Below, one piece after another: positions 18,543 through 56,171 of a DNA stretch of 64,000 nt; position 1 is the first letter of the stretch, and each line of letters begins with the position of its first letter. Source of the stretch: an uncultured Candidatus Saccharibacteria bacterium (GTDB lineage Bacteria > Patescibacteriota > Minisyncoccia > Minisyncoccales > GWA2-38-27); contig CAZSQP010000001.1 in the NCBI GenBank assembly GCA_964609075.1, positions 97,593-161,592 on the forward strand. The letters are read 5' to 3'. The notes under the pieces are model-generated. The model had not been told where the DNA came from and did not search any database. It saw only the letters and a program-made list of their open reading frames with translations. The position numbers and the translations under genes are program-made.

Positions 18543-18989
18543 ATGAAGGTTTTAGCTGAAAACAGAAAAGCCTCTTATGATTATCAGATAATAGACAAGT
18601 TTGAGGCGGGAATGGTTCTAACAGGACAGGAGGTAAAATCAATAAAGTCAGGCAGAATGAGCCTGAAGGGATCTTATGTTATCTTAAAAGACCAAGAACC
18701 CTATTTAATAGGAGCTGCTATCCCTCCTTATCAGCCAGCTAATGCTCCAAAAGACTACAATCCCAATCAGTCCAGAAAGCTTCTTTTACACAAAAAGGAG
18801 ATAAATAAGCTCATAGGAAAAACAAAAGAAAAGGGCTTGACCTTAGTGCCCTTGAAAGTTTATACTAAAAATGCTAGAATAAAGCTCGAATTTGCAGTGG
18901 CCAAAGGAAAGAGAAAAGAAGACAAAAGAGAGAAAATTAAGAAAAGAGAAGCCGAAAGAGAGATAAGGCGCACTTTAAAAAGGGGATGA
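18543..18989 (+). CDS. smpB: SsrA-binding protein SmpB
   Basis: ENRKASYDY...TGQEVKS...LLLHKKEI and a basic C-terminal tail. The gene is immediately followed by tmRNA. Confidence 0.9.
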   Translation: MKVLAENRKASYDYQIIDKFEAGMVLTGQEVKSIKSGRMSLKGSYVILKDQEPYLIGAAIPPYQPANAPKDYNPNQSRKLLLHKKEINKLIGKTKEKGLTLVPLKVYTKNARIKLEFAVAKGKRKEDKREKIKKREAEREIRRTLKRG

Positions 18990-19318
18990 ATGTTTCGACA
19001 AAAGAAGTTATTCTTTTAAGGCAGGCCGAGCTCTATCTCGCAAAACTGGAAAAACTAAATAACTGCCAAGTTATTTAAACAACCAGCTTTAGCTTTAGCT
19101 TAAAAGCTGTGCCTGTCTGGTAACTCCTGATAGTCAGACAAGGTATCAAATCATCAGGATAGATGATTGTTGGAGCCTCTCAATAATCATTAAAATAAAA
19201 AGAGGCAAAGATATAGGCCTTTTGCCTGTTTTAAAACCTGTATCTTATACAAACAGGCTATGTCTGTAGAATTAAAAGAGTAAATCTTTTGGACGAGGGT
19301 TCAAACCCTCCGTCTCCA
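18982..19318 (+). ncRNA. ssrA: tmRNA (ssrA), one-piece
   Basis: The 5' GGGGAUG pairs with the 3' CGUCUCC, including a G3:U pair, followed by A. T-arm GAGGG-UUCAAAC-CCCUC. 5' GUUUCGAC motif. The tag ORF GCC AAG UUA UUU AAA CAA CCA GCU UUA GCU UUA GCU UAA (19065-19103) encodes AKLFKQPALALA. Confidence 0.85.
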
Positions 19319-19336
19319 CAAAAATAATTTAAAATC

Positions 19337-40938: not shown

Positions 40939-41504
40939 TGGAGTTAAAAAACCCAGACATCAGATATTTAAAGAATATGGAAGATGTGATTTATGATAAA
41001 GAATGGCTTAAAACAGCGGGAAACCCAGAGCTCTACTATATGTATAGAGGATTAAAGAGAGAAGAAGGCTTAAGATATGATATTACTGTCATCCCCTCCA
41101 GAATGCTAGGCAAAGAATATGTCAAAACAAAAGGACACGAACATATAGGAGATTACGGAGAACTATACACTGTTCTTGGGGGAGAAGCCATCTTCTTTGT
41201 ACAGAAAGGGAAAGATAAAATAGAAGATGTTTACGCTGTAAAAGCCAAAAAAGGAGATACAGCTATTATCCCTCCAGGATACGCTCACATTACAATAAAT
41301 CCCTCAAGAGAAGATCTTAAAATGGCTAACTGGATGGCAGAAGGAGTTGAAAGCGACTATTCTTTCATACAAGAAAAAGAAGGAGCTTGTTATTACTATA
41401 CAACAGAGGGCTGGATTAAAAATAAGAATTACAAAGAAGTTCCAGAACTCTATTTTAAAAAACCTTTAAAAAAAGTTCCTAAAGATTTAAGCTTCTTAAA
41501 ATAG
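40935..41504 (+). CDS. pgiA: Cupin-type glucose-6-phosphate isomerase
   Basis: TKGHEHIGDYGELYTVLGGEAIF...PPGYAHITIN, a cupin metal site as in archaeal-type PGI. Confidence 0.7.
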   Translation: MMELKNPDIRYLKNMEDVIYDKEWLKTAGNPELYYMYRGLKREEGLRYDITVIPSRMLGKEYVKTKGHEHIGDYGELYTVLGGEAIFFVQKGKDKIEDVYAVKAKKGDTAIIPPGYAHITINPSREDLKMANWMAEGVESDYSFIQEKEGACYYYTTEGWIKNKNYKEVPELYFKKPLKKVPKDLSFLK

Positions 41505-41590
41505 CCGAGGTGGCGGAATTGGCAGACGCGCAGCGTTCAGGACGCTGTGGGGGCAACTCCTTGCGGGTTCAACTCCCGCCCTCGGCACCA
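41504..41590 (+). tRNA. tRNA-Leu (anticodon CAG), type II with long variable arm, CCA encoded
   Basis: Acceptor GCCGAGG/CCUCGGC, anticodon stem CAGCG/CGCUG with loop UUCAGGA, long variable arm, T-arm GCGGG-UUCAACU-CCCGC, A73 and CCA. Confidence 0.9.
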
Positions 41591-48061: not shown

Positions 48062-49060
48062 TTAGGCCTCTTCCACTTTTTCTAAGATAGCCTTTTTTAT
48101 TTTTTCTGCTGTTTTGGAATCACCCTTCAAATAATCTTTTGAAGCTGATATTCCCTGACCTAGCTTTTTATTTTCAAACTGGTACCAGCTACCAGATTTT
48201 TTAATTATTCCTTTGGCTTCTCCCGTGTTTATCAAATCAGCAAAGTAGGAAATGCCTTCGTTATAATAAATATCAAACTCTGCCACTTTAAAAGGAGGAG
48301 CTACTTTGTTCTTTACTATTTTAGCTTTTACCCTGTTTCCTATAATATTATCTCCCTTTTTAATCTGAGCTCTTCTTCTCAAATTAATCCTAACAGAAGA
48401 ATAGAACTTTAAAGCCAAACCTCCGGAAGTTGTTTCGGGATTTCCAAACATCACGCCTATTTTCATTCTTGTCTGGTTTAGAAAGATAACAGAAGTTCTT
48501 GTCTTAGATACCACAGAAGAAAGTTTCCTTAAGGCAGAAGACATCAACCTTGCCTGAAGACCTATCTGGTACTCTCCCATATCCCCTGCAATCTCAGCTT
48601 TAGGAGCCAAAGCCGCTACAGAGTCCACTACAATAACATCGACCTCTCCTGATCTTATTAAACTTTCTGTTATCTGAAGAGCCTGTTCTCCAGAATCAGG
48701 CTGAGAGATTAAAAGATCATCAGTGTTAACCCCTATTCTTTTAGCGTACTCTGGATCTAATGCGTGTTCTGCATCTATAAAAGCTGCTACACCTCCTCTT
48801 TTTTGAGACTGTGCTAAAATATGGAGAGCCAAAGTTGTTTTTCCAGTGGATTCAGGTCCATATATCTCAACTACTCTTCCTCTGGGCACCCCTCCTACTC
48901 CCAAAGCTAAATCCAAAGAAATAGCTCCTGTGGATATAACTTCAACTTCTTTAGACTTAGCTTCTTTTAGTTTCATAATAGCTCCTTCTCCGAACTTCTG
49001 TTTTATATCATCCAAAGCTTCATCTAAATTCCCTGTTGTTTTTTTCTTCTTCTTGGCCAT
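48062..49060 (-). CDS. recA: Recombinase RecA
   Basis: [10 protein letters not shown]-loop, and L1/L2 regions. The start is set at [24 protein letters not shown]; the track ORF starts 12 codons earlier and would overlap ftsK. Confidence 0.95.
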
Positions 49061-49080
49061 ATACTCTTTTCTAACATTTA

Positions 49081-52000
49081 TTATACTTTTTGCCAACCAT
49101 CTTCTTCTGACTCTTCTCCATAAACCTCTCTTGGTTTTGATCCTTCTTGAGGCCCTACTATTCCCTTTTCTTCAAGCATATCTATTAATCTAGCAGCTCT
49201 AGCATAACCTACCCTCAACCTTCTCTGGAGAAGAGAAGAAGAAGCTTTGCCAGACTCTATGACAAGCCTCTTTGCCTCTTCGTAAAGAGGTTCTTCTTCG
49301 TCAAAAAGGGAATCAGAACTTCCGCTCCCTTCAGAAGATTTTTTAGTTTCTTCTATCAATTCAGGATCCATCTCGGTTGAAAGCTGTTCTTTTTCTGTTT
49401 CTTCTTTAATATACTTTACTACTTTCTTAACTTCTTTTTCTGAGACATAAGGACCTTGAATTCTCTTCGGTTTTACCACGTCAGCTGAGAGATAAAGCAT
49501 ATCTCCCCTTCCCAGAAGCTTCTCTGCCCCAGCTGTATCTAAAACAGTTCTTGAATCAACTTGAGAAGCTACCTGAAATGTAACTCTTGAGGTAATATTA
49601 GCTTTAATTAAACCTGTAATAACTTCTACTGAGGGTCTTTGGGTGGCTAAAACCAAATGAATTCCCACAGCTCTTGCCATCTGAGCTAGTCTTACTACAG
49701 AAGCCTCAATATCTCTTCCTCTGGCTGACATAAGATCTGCTAATTCATCTATTATTAAAATAATGAAAGGGAGAGGGTTCGTACCATTGCTTAAAGCCTT
49801 TTCGTTGTAACTATGTATATTTCTTGAACCCACATCAGCCAAAACACTAAACCTCCTTTCCATCTCTCCTGTTAACCATTTTAAGGCTCCCAGAGTTTCT
49901 TCTGCCGTATAAATTATAGGACATAGAAGATGAGGAAGATCTTTATAGACAGAAAACTCTACTCTCTTGGGGTCTACCAGAATTAATCTTAAATTCTCCG
50001 GACTGGCGCTCTTAAAAGAAGTACTTGGCTGATAAAGAAGACTTAAGATTAAAGAGTTTAAATATATGGTATTGTGGTTAACAAAACCATTTCCGATAAA
50101 TGAGTCTGATCCAGGTACATAAAAATCGTATCCTTCACCAGAAGTTTTTCTAATCTTTTTAACTTTGTCCCAATAAAAATTCCTTTCTGAGATATCTTCT
50201 AACTCTTGGTATTCAGATTCATTAGAAATCGGTTTATAGAAATTTAAAATATTTTTTACAGACTGATAACTAGGCATTCTAGCTCCTGAGTTGTAACTCC
50301 TCAGACTATTAAAAGCATATTTTGGAATTTGAACACCAGATTGATATTTCCATCCCTTATTTGTTAGGTTAGCAAAACGACTACGATATTTTTTTGCCAT
50401 ATCTTTGAGCAAAGAAGAAATATTCGGTATCAAATCCCGATTTGTATTTGGAGACAAATTAAATAAGTCTTTTAACTTTTCATTTTTTTCTTTTCTTACA
50501 AAACCAATTTCCTCACTAAATTTACGTGCATCATCCCCGAAAATAGAAAGGCGATAGTATTTATTATGAGAGTATTCTTTTATCTTTTTTTCAGAAAGCG
50601 AAGAGACAATACCAAAATTTAGGAGTAAAATATGGATTTGAGAAATCAGTTTTTTACTGCTTATAGAAAGTTCAACAGCTCCTCTTCCGGTATAACCATC
50701 GTTATCAAAAAGAGCACTTAAATAAGCTTTTACTATTTCTTTGGGAGCTTCTCTGATAGCCCTAGGTATCTCTTTATTGGGAGATTTCGAAGAATCCATC
50801 CCTAGATATAATAGAAACTCTTTTAAGTGCTTACTATTGACCATTATATCGGTAGCTTTATTTTTAGGATTGGATCCACTTTTTATTTCAGTAAATCTAG
50901 AAATACCAAAAAGTTTTTTGAGGTATTTTTTATAAAGTTGTACAAGAAACTTGTCCGCTTGAGTATAAACTACTCGATGAAAGCCGTTTCCCTCTACTGA
51001 TAAACCTCCATCGGCAGTTAAAAAACCTAGAAAACGAGCTAAGCAAGGAGTTATTTTAGAAGGAAAAGAAATTTTATTATGATAACTCTTAATGTTGCTT
51101 GGTTCGAAATCAGAAATATCGGTTTTACTTCCAAATAGAGCTGGGCCGCGACTAATAGCTACATAGTCACCTTCTCTTATCAAAGACGCTGGTTTCCAGC
51201 CCTGAGAGCCATCTTTATTCATAACCCAAAGGGGATGTTCAGTCGTTGCTTCAACTTTATAACCGCGGCTTGTGATTATTTTATGAAATTTACAAATTCC
51301 ATTATTGTAGTTCTTTGCTGTTTCTTCGATCCCATCTCTTGTAACAAGCTTTATCTTAAAATTAACTTCACTATTTAAAGAGAGGGGGCACAATTCTTCA
51401 AAGTCCAACATTCCTTTTTCGGTGAACATTAAGGTATCTTTTGCGCATGTCTTACCGGTGCCGGTGGCGCCTGCTACCAGCATATGAGGCATTTTAGCCA
51501 TGTCAGCATAAACAGCATTACCAGAAACGTTTCTTCCTAAAACAATAGGCAAATCAACTGAAGAATCTTGAAATTTAGAATTCTCTATTAAACTTCCTAA
51601 TCTGACGGTAGCCCTCTCTGTATTGGGAACCTCAATTCCCACTAAAGATCTTCCGGGAATGGGAGCTTCTATTCTGATAGGATGACTTGCTAAAGAAAGG
51701 GCTAAATCGTTAGAAAGAGTAGTAATTTTAGAAAGTTTAACCCCTTCTGCTGGCTTTAAAGTATACTGGGTAACAGTAGGCCCTATATTAACCTCCGACA
51801 TAGAAACCTCTATACCGAAGTTCTCTAAGGTTTTTTTAATAATAGCTGAGTTTTCTTTAGTATCTCCACTGGTAGGAGCTCCCCTCTCTTTAGAAAGCAG
51901 ATCTATTGGGGGAGGGTTGAAAGAAAAAGTTTTGAAGCTCTTTTTCTCTTCTTTTTTAACCTCTTCCTTTTTGGGTTCTGGCTTTCTGGAAACTTCTGGA

Positions 52001-52584
52001 GCTATCTCTTTTACTTTAAACTTAGGTTTGAATATCTTTTTAATAACAGAAGGTTTTTTCTCTTCTTTTTTCTCTTCTTTTTTCTCTTTTTTCTCAGGTC
52101 TTAGAAAGTGCCAGAATATTAAACCCCCTATAAAAATAGGAGCCAAAAAAATGAAGAAAGTAGCCCAAAAGCCAAAATACTTCAAAAAGAGCCAGCTTAA
52201 ACCATATCCTGCTATTCCTCCAAATCTTGCCCCAGAGTTAAAAGATCCCAATATGCCTGTTACTCCGGTGACTAAAAGAAAGACAGCTAGAAGAACCGGC
52301 CAAAAAAGAGTTCTGTCTTTTTTGAAGAGTTCAAAATCATACTTTTTACTTATTAAAACTAGTCCCCCTAGGATAAAAATCAAAGGGAAGACAAATATAG
52401 TTTCTCCTATTAAAAATCTGCCCCATTCCATAAAGGTTTTTCCGGCAACTCCTGCTTTTCCAAAAAAACTCAGAGCTATTAAAATAGCTAAAAGAATCAT
52501 CAAAACCCCAAAAATAGCTTGTTTGGTATAGTTTGGAAGAGTAAACCTCTTCTTCTTTTTAGAAGATTTCTTTTTCTTTGCCAC
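49081..52584 (-). CDS. ftsK: DNA translocase FtsK/SpoIIIE interrupted by an intein
   Basis: N-terminal TM segments, a KE-rich linker, and a motor domain whose Walker A ([10 protein letters not shown]) is followed by an insertion. It also has LIIDELADL Walker B and a gamma winged-helix domain ([21 protein letters not shown]). Confidence 0.9.
50071..51447 (-). mobile_element. Class-1 intein (459 aa) with LAGLIDADG homing-endonuclease domain, inserted in the FtsK P-loop
   Basis: Residues 380-838. It starts at Cys (GKT|CAKDTLMF) and has block B TTEHPLW. LAGLIDADG motifs [13 protein letters not shown] and [12 protein letters not shown] are present. It ends FVNHN|T, with +1 Thr. I verified the codons directly (tgc at 51445-51447; aat at 50071-50073). 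Confidence 0.85.
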
Positions 52585-52598
52585 CTATAAGAAAGGAC

Positions 52599-55500
52599 TT
52601 AAGTTTTTTTAAACCCTGTACCCGCAGGTATCAGTTTACCTATTATAACATTTTCTTTAAGTCCTCTCAATTTGTCTTCCTTTCCTTCAAGAGAAGCTTT
52701 TATCAAAACTCTTGAGGTCTCTTGAAAGGAAGCAGCAGAAAGGAAAGAGTCTGTACTCAAAGCTACTCGCGAAATTCCCAAAAGAATATTTTTTCCTGTG
52801 GCAGGCTTTTTCTTTTCTTTTTTCATCTTTTCGTTCTCTTCTAAAAGTCTGGCATTTTCTACAACTTCTCCGGTAGTAAGAAGAGTGTCTCCAGGGTCTT
52901 TAATTTTGACTCTAGAGAACATCTGTCTTATTGCCACCTCAACATGCTTGTCATGAATAACAGCTCCTTGAGAAACATAAATCTTCTGTATCTCCCGAAG
53001 GATATAGTCTTGAGTATTTTCCTTGCCTGTAAGTCTAAAGAGCTCTTTGATATTAAGATTTCCCTCGTAAAGCTTCTGTCCCTTTTCAACCTGCTCTCCT
53101 TTCTTAACCAAAATAGCTTTATTTGGAGACACTTTGTACTCTAAAAGATCTTTCTTTGACTTCTTATCCTTTGGCATTATTTTTAAGACTCTGTCCGGGG
53201 TAATTTCTGTTACCTTACCTTCTACCTTAGAAACCTCTGCTCTACCTTTTGGATTCCTGGCCTCAAAAATCTCCTGTACTCTAGGAAGGCCGAAAGTGAT
53301 ATCTTCTCCTCCAGCAACACCTCCTGTATGAAAGGTCCTCATGGTAAGCTGAGTTCCAGGCTCTCCAATAGCTTGAGCTGCTACAATACCTACAGCAGTT
53401 CCCTTCTCAACAACCTTGTTCTTGCCAAAATCCCAACCATAACATTTACGACAAACTCCTCTTTTTGATTTACATGTCAGAGGCGTTCTTACTCTAACTT
53501 TTTCTATTCCCTTATCTATTATTTCCTGTCCCTTTTCCCAATCTATTATCTCTCCTTTTTTAACAATAGTTTTAGTACCGCCTTTCTTAGTCTTACCCTT
53601 TATATTCTCCAGAGATGTCCTTCCTACTATCTTAAAGAGAAAGTTCTGACCTATATCATCAGCTTCTCTTCTGAATATTTCTTTTCCTTCTTTGTCCCCA
53701 CAATCTTCATCTGAAACAATAACTTCGTGGGCTACATCGATAAGTCTTCGAGTAAGATAACCTGCCGTAGAAGTTCTTAAGGCTGTGTCAGCTGTTCCTT
53801 TTCTGGCTCCATGAGTAGAGATAAAGTATTCTAATACATCAAAACCTTCTTTAAAGGAGCTTATTACGGGTAGTTCTATAATTTGCCCTGCCGGATTAAT
53901 AACTAAGCCTTTCATACCAGCCATTTGGACGGGCTGAGACCAACTTCCTCTGGCTCCAGAATCTACAATTGTAAAAATAGAACTTGATTTTTTTAATCTC
54001 TCTGGAACAAGCTTTTCTATCTTCAATTTAGTTCTTGTCCAGACCTCAATAATCTTGCTCCTTCTTTCCTCTAGAGAAAAGAGGCCTCTTTTAAAATGCT
54101 TCTCAATAGCCTCTACCTCTTTTTCAGCTTCCTCTATAATTTCTTTTTTATTCTCTGGTATTATTAAATCAGTCATACCCCAGGTAACACCGGAAACTGT
54201 AGAGCTTTCAAATCCTAAATTTTTTATCTTATCTAAAGTGTCTTCAATCGTTTCCTGGTCGTATTTAGCTACTACATCACTCACTATGCTTTCTATAGAT
54301 TTGGATCTCATTACTCCATTAACAAAGGAGTAGTCCTCAGGAAGAGACTGATTGAATCTGATTCTGCCCAAAGAAGTCTCTATAACTTTATCTGAAACCC
54401 TTACCTTTATCTTTGCTCTTAAATCTAAACCTCCAAACTCATGAGCTACCTCTGCTTCTCTATAATCAGAGAACATTTTGCCTTCTCCTTTGGCTCCTTC
54501 TTCTATTTTAGTTATCCAATAACATCCCAAAACTATATCCTGGGTAGGAGCTACGATAGGAAGACCTGTAGCGGGTTTTAAAAGATTGTAGGAAGAAAGC
54601 ATTCTCTCTTTAGCTTCTTTCTGGGCTTCTTTAGATAGAGGAACATGAACTGCCATTTGATCTCCATCAAAGTCAGCGTTAAAGGCTTTACAGACTAAAG
54701 GATGTAGTCTGATTGATTCTCCCTCTGTTAAAACAGGCTGGAAGGCTTGAATACCCAAACGGTGAAGAGTCGGGGCTCTATTTAAAAGAACGTATTTGTT
54801 TTCTACAACTTCTTCCAACAATGCCCAGACCTCATCTGTCTCCTGTTCTATCAATCTAGAAGCTCCTCTGACATTGTAAGCTAGCTCTTTGTCCAAAATC
54901 TTTTCTATAACAAAAGGTTTAAAGAGCTCTAGAGCCATCTTTTTAGGAAGACCACACTGGTGTAACTTTAACTCCGGTCCTACTACGATAACAGAACGTC
55001 CCGAGTAATCCACTCTCTTCCCTAAAAGATTCTGCCTAAATCTTCCTTGTTTTCCCTTAAGCATATCAGCTAAAGATTTCAGTAATCTTTTACCTCCAGT
55101 AGTAGCTGTAGTTAAAATCCCTTTTCTCATTCCATTATCTATTAAAGCATCTACTGCCTCCTGAAGCATTCTTTTTTCGTTTTTGACTATAACTCCTGGA
55201 GCTCCTATTTCCAATAAGTACTTTAACCTGTTATTTCTGTTTATCACTCTCCTATACAAGTCATTTAAATCAGAGGAAGCATACCTCCCCCCATCTAACT
55301 GAACCATAGGCCTTAAATCGGGTGGAAGCACTGGAAGCACTGTAAGAAACATCCATTCTGGCTTAAGTTTAGCCTCATCTAGAGCCTGATAAAGCTTTAA
55401 CCTTCTCAATATTTTCTTCTTTGAAGCTGAACTTGCTTCTTCAACTTCTTTTTTAAGCTCTTTCATCTTTTTTTTGATATTAATATCTTCAAATATCTTT

Positions 55501-56171
55501 CTTAATGTTTCAGCTCCGGTACCAGCTTCAAAAACCTCTCCATAGTCTAAAGAAAGATCGTGATATTCAATTTCAGAGAGAACCCTCAAAGGAATTATTT
55601 TAGAAACTTCTTCTTTGGTATTATCTCTTTCTTTTTTAAGATCCTCTAAGGCTTTTTTTAATTCCTTTTTCTTTTTAACTTCTGCCTTTTTCTTTTTAAC
55701 TTCTTGTTTGTACTCCTTGTCTATTCTGTCCAGAACCTCTTTCCTGGCCTCTTCATCCACTGAAGTTATGATATAGGAGGCAAAATAAATTACTTTCTCC
55801 AATTGCTGCATAGGTACCCCCAAAACCATTCCTATCCTTGAAGGAATACCTCTTAAAAACCAAATATGCGAAACTGGACAGGCTAATTTAATATGCCCCA
55901 TTCTTTCTCTCCTGACAGAAGACTTGGTTACTTCCACTCCGCATCTGTCACAAATAACACCCTTGTATCTGATTCTTTTGTATTTTCCGCAGTAGCATTC
56001 ATAGTCTTTCTCCGGCCCAAAAATTCTTTCGTCAAAAAGTCCGTCTTTCTCGGCTTTTTGAGTTCTGTAGTTTATGGTTTCAGGCTTGGTAACTTCGCCA
56101 AAGCTCCAATCCAAAATCTCTTCTGGAGAGGACAGCTTTATCCTTATAGATTTTAAATCTTCTACTCTCAT
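52599..56171 (-). CDS. rpoC: DNA-directed RNA polymerase subunit beta'
   Basis: Zinc motif [23 protein letters not shown] and the catalytic [12 protein letters not shown]. 1190 aa. Confidence 0.95.

Follow-up and report, generated by a model that had tools for sequence, protein, structure and literature searches.

A class 1 LAGLIDADG intein in the P-loop of a Patescibacteria FtsK, with an unusual N-terminal splice junction

The position between the lysine of the Walker A motif, or P-loop, and the Ser or Thr that follows it (Lys^Ser/Thr) has been called a classic intein insertion site (PMC5050341), and the main text of a large intein survey gives DnaB, MCM and RFC as proteins in which it is used (PMC4760082). 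The main text of that survey does not name FtsK as an intein host, and literature mentioning both inteins and FtsK does not, as far as checked, describe an FtsK intein. Here we analyze an insert that interrupts the Walker A motif of FtsK in an uncultured Candidatus Saccharibacteria bacterium. The gene lies in a 64,000-nucleotide stretch of DNA (hereafter, the window), which corresponds to positions 97,593 to 161,592 of contig CAZSQP010000001.1 (assembly GCA_964609075.1). The insert belongs to a known kind of element, its host has not been catalogued and its junction is unusual. We consider it probable, though by no means assured, that it is a class 1 LAGLIDADG intein at the classic P-loop site of FtsK that splices via its Cys1 and leaves an extra Thr in the mature protein.

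The insert is encoded on the minus strand at window positions 50071-51447, where 459 sense codons run without a stop from CAKDTLMF to GNGFVNHN. The plus-strand translation of the same interval has many stops. The insert sits in frame within a single open reading frame (ORF) of 1167 codons, 49081..52584(-), and its junction DNA reads GGT AAG ACA|TGC GCA AAA on the N side and AAC CAC AAT|ACC ATA TAT on the C side. A preliminary description, made from the sequence of the window alone, had recognized, at exactly these coordinates but omitting the strand, a large LAGLIDADG intein that splits the Walker A loop of FtsK. The residues it pointed to in the 459-aa insert are all present in the translation, namely Cys1, TTEHPLW, the terminal HN with a +1 Thr and two LAGLIDADG motifs with their acidic residues. 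Its proposed check against Hint and LAGLIDADG profiles also came out in its favor. Pfam's Intein_splicing (PF14890) matches the insert with 62.3 bits (cut-off 35.8, E 6e-17) and LAGLIDADG_3 (PF14528) with 76.7 bits (cut-off 22.5, E 1.7e-21), the latter in two matched stretches. Both profile matches fall between the two pieces into which the FtsK_SpoIIIE match is divided. Both scores exceed the cut-offs, and the similarity is not due to chance.

Other comparisons lead to the same families. Among NCBIfam models, the insert aligns with those portions that represent inteins in the intein-bearing RFC, DnaB, GyrA, RNA polymerase A″ and V-ATPase models. Its nearest solved sequences are the Thermococcales V-ATPase inteins (TliVMA/PhoVMA) and PI-PfuI, with a best E of 1e-15. 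An AlphaFold model of the insert, whose numbering includes a 10-residue N-terminal flank, has a predicted local distance difference test score (pLDDT) of 84.5 and a predicted template modeling score (pTM) of 0.87. When this model was compared over its full length to solved folds using Foldseek, it matched TliVMA (E 4e-28), and also PI-PfuI, PI-TkoII and PI-SceI. The endonuclease core of the model matches the fold of I-DmoI.

The canonical set of class 1 residues is complete: C1, T68, H71, D441, H458, N459 and T+1. As conventionally delimited by translation, profiles and model, the intein extends from Cys1 to Asn459 (459 aa, 50071..51447; this and all further features of the gene are on the minus strand). 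The N-terminal half of the Hint domain (residues 1-110, 51118..51447), located by Pfam and NCBIfam, contains block A (CAKDT, with Cys1 at 51445-51447) as well as block B (T68-T-E-H71, at 51235-51246, within TTEHPLW). The LAGLIDADG endonuclease domain follows at residues about 125-330 (50458..51075), based on Pfam, invariant residues and the fold matches to I-DmoI and PI-PfuI. Its acidic residues are Asp146 in motif 1 (FLGFLTADG, 51007-51033) and Asp250 in motif 2 (LSALFDNDG, 50695-50721, continuing as LFDNDGY). Residues 331-415 (50203..50457) have no Pfam match and are helical in the model (helices at 329-431); by analogy with other large inteins, this region is probably an accessory DNA-binding region. 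The C-terminal Hint half (residues 416-459, 50071..50202), located by Pfam and invariance, has block F (GYDF, with Asp441) and block G (GNGFVNHN), and ends in His458-Asn459 at 50071-50076. The +1 Thr codon, ACC at 50068..50070, aligns with the one Thr/Ser that intein-less FtsK has in Walker A and is the predicted nucleophile of the second splicing step. At the other end, an alignment of alleles identifies ACA (Thr379, 51448..51450) as an extra codon before Cys1.

It is close to certain that the insert is an intein, and we assign it to class 1, with an embedded double-motif LAGLIDADG homing endonuclease. Class 3 inteins are defined by a non-nucleophilic residue 1 and the WCT triplet, made up of a Trp in block B, a nucleophilic Cys at F:4 in block F and a Thr at G:5 (PMC2807308). 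This class was rejected, as the insert has Asp441 at F:4, a Cys1 and, in block B, the canonical TxxH. A split intein is ruled out by the one uninterrupted 1167-codon ORF.

Because the catalytic residues are conserved, we infer that splicing would follow the usual steps. Translation would yield a 1167-aa precursor with an interrupted Walker A motif, in which Cys1 would attack the Thr379-Cys380 peptide bond. The N-extein would then be transferred to the hydroxyl of Thr+1, and cyclization of Asn459 would free the intein and join the exteins.

Homologous FtsK inteins already sit unremarked in public metagenome-assembled genomes (MAGs) and metagenome data. In a protein search, relatives hosted by FtsK were 50-77% identical and included one in Ca. 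Yanofskybacteria GW2011_GWA1_48_10. From public Patescibacteria contigs, we established a set of at least 60 complete FtsK inteins, 48 of them distinct, that are 46-75% identical to that of the window. The FtsK-intein loci comprise 2 from GTDB genomes and 61 from metagenomes of the Joint Genome Institute (JGI). Of the 150 best matches among 1.84 billion cluster representatives, the only ones in FtsK are four further clusters and the partial allele P0009, which the protein search also found; the remainder occur in other proteins. A scan of viral contigs yielded no relative of the FtsK intein.

Some of these loci are irregular. Extra insertions within the intein occur in L002, L037, L046 and L058/L059, whose inteins have 475, 476, 477 and 505 aa instead of the usual 452-460; the insert in L002 has 16 residues and is near residue 411 of the intein. 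In L004, the Ca. Yanofskybacteria locus (LCPC01000019.1, 3700-4300), intein residues about 4-80 are lost and the frame is shifted: GKTCDA is followed by MRWKNGG... in another frame, and ftsK is called as two ORFs. This locus is either a decaying intein that broke ftsK or an assembly error.

The distribution of the intein is sporadic, and most FtsK genes are without it. The spliced sequence was used to recover close FtsK homologues, and all 235 of those with the P-loop present are uninterrupted, at up to 78% identity. The in-frame insertion is absent from these close orthologues and thus not present in all homologues; its presence in all of them, as a lineage-specific non-splicing domain, is what the preliminary description had named as refuting evidence. 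The nearest FtsK homologues come from Patescibacteria/Parcubacteria-type MAGs. Some intein-less FtsK proteins even share the QPSTSFKSA signature of the sub-clade to which the FtsK of the window belongs, so the patchy occurrence extends to near relatives. Three intein-less FtsK of the GKS clade (L067-L069) were called short (371-424 aa) and lack a membrane domain. A separate small upstream ORF in L069 matches FtsK_4TM, and these three may be split or mis-called ftsK genes.

Across the 48 distinct alleles, T68, H71, D441, H458 and N459 of the splicing domain and D146 and D250 of the endonuclease are invariant. In allele pairs with unsaturated synonymous divergence (dS), the median ratio of nonsynonymous to synonymous divergence (dN/dS) is 0.095 for the exteins, 0.106 for the N-terminal Hint half, 0.153 for the endonuclease, 0.152 for the helical region after it and 0.102 for the C-terminal Hint half. 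Given these low values in all regions of the intein, it is likely that its splicing and endonuclease activities are both kept by selection.

Intein identity is 82-88% (dS 0.2-0.9) in many allele pairs whose exteins are 64-69% identical (dS >2 or saturated). The inteins of several pairs are far younger than their host genes, which points to homing and to recent horizontal spread of the family. DNA identity along the L029/L021 pair is 0.88 inside the intein versus about 0.6-0.66 in the flanks, and along the L022/L028 pair it is 0.997 versus 0.83-0.93 in adjacent windows. In these two of the pairs profiled and in a third, L029/L026, identity drops at the intein borders, which is the pattern produced by homing with short co-conversion tracts. 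It is from the discordant ages of inteins and exteins in related alleles that we infer a homing step, in which the endonuclease would cut intein-less ftsK alleles and repair would copy the intein in at the DNA level.

The window's own copy does not show this contrast, which weighs against its recent movement. Its intein is 74% identical to that of L027 and its extein 73%, and DNA identity between these loci is 0.72 inside the intein and 0.67-0.72 in the flanks. No other intein is more than 74% identical to it, so the intein is no closer to its relatives than the extein (73%). The preliminary description had suggested that the element might still be active in homing. For the family, recent horizontal spread supports this suggestion, as the element occurs sporadically and is younger than the gene that carries it; the copy in the window shows no sign of recent transfer.

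One might therefore suppose that the window intein splices but that its endonuclease no longer homes in this lineage, the element being inherited vertically with ftsK. The roughly equal divergence of intein and extein from L027 would fit this scenario, as would a G+C content of the intein (33.1%) that is just below that of the host gene (37.5%). However, purifying selection acts family-wide on the endonuclease domain as a whole and on both of its catalytic Asp residues (dN/dS 0.15), other alleles of the FtsK-intein family have clearly crossed between diverged hosts and the window's own FtsK sub-clade contains intein-less alleles. We regard purely vertical inheritance as possible but rather doubtful.

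The conserved extra Thr at the splice junction, together with the natural variation among Cys, Ser and Thr at the first nucleophile position, is what sets these inteins apart from ordinary ones. All 235 intein-less homologues have GK(T/S)-I/V, i.e., one hydroxyl residue after the Walker lysine and a fixed spacing to helix alpha-1 (e.g., GKS-VAIHSLL). Every FtsK-intein allele has GK-T|(C/S/T)-x-x-D-T...HN|(T/S)-(I/V). On the C side, the +1 Thr or Ser aligns with the native Walker residue, and on the N side a Thr stands between the Lys and Cys1. In-silico excision of the 459 residues leaves GKT-T-IYL, which is one residue too many. The expectation in the preliminary description that removal of the insert restores a normal P-loop is therefore contradicted. 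Only an intein of 460 aa that starts at the Thr would restore the host sequence on excision. Judged by its sequence, the insert appears to have every testable feature of the class 1 intein and LAGLIDADG families apart from this restoration.

Of the two ways to read the junction, we favor, as somewhat likelier than not, an intein start at Cys, with the extra Thr retained in mature FtsK. With Cys1 as the nucleophile, the mature protein would read GTGK-T-T-IYL rather than GTGK-T-IFL. The added Thr would re-create GKT, and the native Thr/Ser would be shifted one position into helix alpha-1. This reading implies conventional splicing chemistry. In the 48 alleles, position 1 is Cys in 41, Ser in 4 and Thr in 3, and nothing else, although the neighboring positions vary freely. 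Six independent lineages changed at this position, along the codon path TGY>TCY>ACY. Such a restriction and such a path are expected of a nucleophile position, and they support Cys in this role. Moreover, a short Cys spacing appears to exist elsewhere in the intein family, in that P0328 and P0371 have the same C-x-x-D/N-S spacing directly after GK.

Several observations weigh against a retained Thr. The extra residue is found in 0 of the 235 intein-less FtsK proteins, and the alignment with these homologues reveals no compensating indel within about 70-90 residues of the junction. Given these two results, a scarred product would have an added residue in the motor's most conserved part, and the scar would need to be tolerated at each entry into a new host. 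In addition, about 135 of the best 150 cluster representatives have a GK|C junction (GK|C-h-x-x-D-T) without an extra Thr. A gap-free alignment with these related inteins puts their Cys1 opposite Thr379 of FtsK and their hydrophobic residue 2 opposite the Cys of the FtsK intein. GK and the D-T anchor are equally far apart in the FtsK inteins and in these relatives.

These observations agree better with an intein of 460 aa that begins Thr1-Cys2. In this case, Thr1 would perform the first N-to-O acyl shift, mature FtsK would have the native GK-T/S and the insertion site would be the ordinary Lys^Ser/Thr site. T-x-x-x-D-T would then match the C-x-x-x-D-T of the related inteins, and there would be no need for an insertion that is unseen in any intein-less FtsK. 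That the intein repeatedly entered naive hosts also speaks for this reading. The Thr is invariant in 60/60 alleles, with all four Thr codons used. The +1 residue equals the Walker residue of the host clade, being Thr where intein-less relatives have GKT and Ser where they have GKS. Also, neither candidate position for the first nucleophile holds Cys or Ser in the alleles L016, L041 and L024/L025/L065, which read GK-T-T-x-x-D-T, so a Thr must act there if they are functional. An S1T mutant of the Tli pol-2 intein does splice (PMC2807308).

Nonetheless, we consider the 460-aa reading unlikely. Reviews give only Cys1 and Ser1 as natural N-terminal nucleophiles (PMC2807308, PMC4031507). A non-catalytic position 2 is unlikely to hold Cys in 85% of alleles, and otherwise Ser or Thr, across sequences that are 46-100% identical. 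A Thr nucleophile would be expected to switch at times to Ser or Cys, but this Thr never does. Finally, the agreement of the +1 residue with the host clade rests on a single evolutionary contrast between Ser and Thr. The +1 Ser codons, always AGY in intein alleles, compare with AGC, TCA and TCA in three intein-less relatives and favor neither reading. An intein in another P-loop protein, P0346, reads GK|C-C-R-F-D-T, with Cys at both positions 1 and 2. We speculate that such an arrangement could be a plausible intermediate for a shift of the nucleophile by one position.

Returning to numbering from Cys1, Thr replaces this residue in three independent lineages (L016, L041 and L024/L025/L065), and Ser does so in three others (L028, L035/L036 and L046). 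In all of these alleles, the frames are intact and the catalytic residues are unchanged, and we found no residues that co-vary with Thr1 or Ser1. The Ser allele L028 and the Cys allele L022 are otherwise almost identical. Tori et al. stated that Thr1 had so far not been seen in natural inteins, despite the splicing of an S1T mutant (PMC2807308), and later reviews describe Cys1 or Ser1 as the N-terminal nucleophile (PMC4031507, PMC7765530). In the literature searched, we found no report of a natural Thr1 intein. We tentatively propose, while holding the opposite to be the better bet, that the Patescibacteria FtsK inteins break the rule of a Cys or Ser start with traceless splicing. They would do so either by a family-wide Thr1 in an intein of 460 aa or by Cys1 with a Thr scar; in either case, the three GK-T-T lineages would be natural Thr-nucleophile inteins.

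A last explanation, that the insert is a dead or domesticated, non-splicing Hint-like domain within an FtsK that is a pseudogene or works with a permanent insertion, draws on the broken copy in one related genome (L004, with its internal deletion and frameshift), but we reject it as highly improbable, since the reading frame is intact, the canonical splicing residues are invariant in the 48 alleles, the Hint halves are under purifying selection as strong as that on the exteins, extein conservation matches that of intein-less FtsK and a 459-aa domain between the Lys and Thr of Walker A would be expected to block ATP binding.

We now note properties of the host gene and its surroundings. Based on the list of ORFs, Pfam and a public gene call, ftsK extends over 49081..52584, with 1167 codons plus a stop if it starts at the GTG at 52584. 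This longest ORF has a Lys-rich N-terminus, and the start is ambiguous: the public gene call, on a Logan contig, gives 1139 aa from an ATG 28 codons downstream of the GTG. The N-extein up to the Walker A lysine (...VAGATGTGK, 51451..52584) comprises the membrane segments and the alpha domain, along with the first part of the motor domain, as judged by Pfam and the alignment with intein-less proteins. The remaining C-extein, up to the stop (49081..50067; Pfam and alignment), has the rest of the motor with Walker B, and the gamma domain. The flanks of the insert match FtsK_alpha (PF17854), FtsK_SpoIIIE (PF01580, split in two) and FtsK_gamma (PF09397), and the host protein matches the NCBIfam FtsK model NF007615 with an E of 1e-111. 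It thus has the features of an FtsK, i.e., N-terminal membrane segments, an alpha domain, a RecA-type motor with Walker A and B and a gamma domain.

The gene is situated between rpoC (52599..56171) and recA (48062..49096) in the order rpoB-rpoC-ftsK-recA, all on the minus strand, which is a conserved neighborhood. The window lies within a public contig of 185 kb. The Walker site of recA, directly downstream of ftsK, contains no intein. In another Patescibacteria-type RecA, this site is occupied by a related intein, P0012 (34% identical; GPESSGK|C...HN|TTLALH). The recA of the window is therefore an empty target for a sister element. Just two RNA genes were detected in the 64-kb window, a tmRNA at 18982-19321(+) (Rfam, 127 bits) and a tRNA-Leu(CAG) at 41504-41590(+).

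The window contains no second intein and no second ftsK, although it covers only part of the genome. FtsK maturation, and with it cell division, would depend on protein splicing in this organism, as the preliminary description had also reasoned. FtsK, a chromosome-segregation motor, would join the essential DNA-handling P-loop ATPases that inteins have colonized, here in a reduced-genome bacterium of the candidate phyla radiation (CPR). The alleles form a natural test set, with many members, clear recent transfers, Cys/Ser/Thr variants at position 1 and a nearly identical Cys1/Ser1 pair. The set is suited to studying how an intein nucleophile changes and how precisely a host sequence needs to be restored. 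If mature FtsK does keep the extra Thr in its Walker A helix, this would show that an indel in one of the most highly conserved motifs can be forced on a host, and maintained, by a selfish element. If Thr acts as a nucleophile, the repertoire of splicing chemistry and the options for engineering would be wider.

Three groups of known inteins are close enough for comparison. The first are the classic P-loop inteins, such as TerL1-a of mycobacteriophage, archaeal RFC-a and MCM-a and bacterial DnaB-b (PMC5050341 and the main text of PMC4760082). Like these, the FtsK intein would occupy the structural GK^S/T site and use the Walker hydroxyl residue as +1 nucleophile, and it resides in a P-loop ATPase that works on DNA. 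The preliminary description had not recognized ftsK as one of the commonly catalogued hosts, which agrees with its absence from the main text of that survey. Unlike the classic P-loop inteins, the FtsK intein has an extra Thr between the Lys and Cys1, and its distance from the Cys to the D/T anchor is one residue shorter.

The second group, the VMA inteins, PI-PfuI, PI-TkoII and PI-SceI (PDB 7qss, 7qsu, 7qst, 1dq3, 2cw7 and 1vde), shares the architecture of the FtsK intein, in which a double-motif LAGLIDADG endonuclease interrupts the Hint domain, with extra DNA-binding parts that are probable in the FtsK intein. The folds match with template modeling (TM) scores of 0.62-0.68. However, these inteins are only 12-21% identical to the FtsK intein, their hosts are archaea or yeast and they occur in other host proteins and at other insertion sites.

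The third group consists of inteins in a Patescibacteria-type RecA (P0012), a ClpB-like AAA ATPase (P0011) and terminase-like proteins (P0014 and P0015), which are 27-34% identical to the FtsK intein over the full length. They have in common with it the C-terminal GNGF(V/I)NHN|T and the P-loop site. By contrast to the FtsK intein, their N-terminal junction is GK|C-V-x-x-D-T without the extra Thr, and their excision restores the native motif, as in GPESSGK|...|TTLALH.

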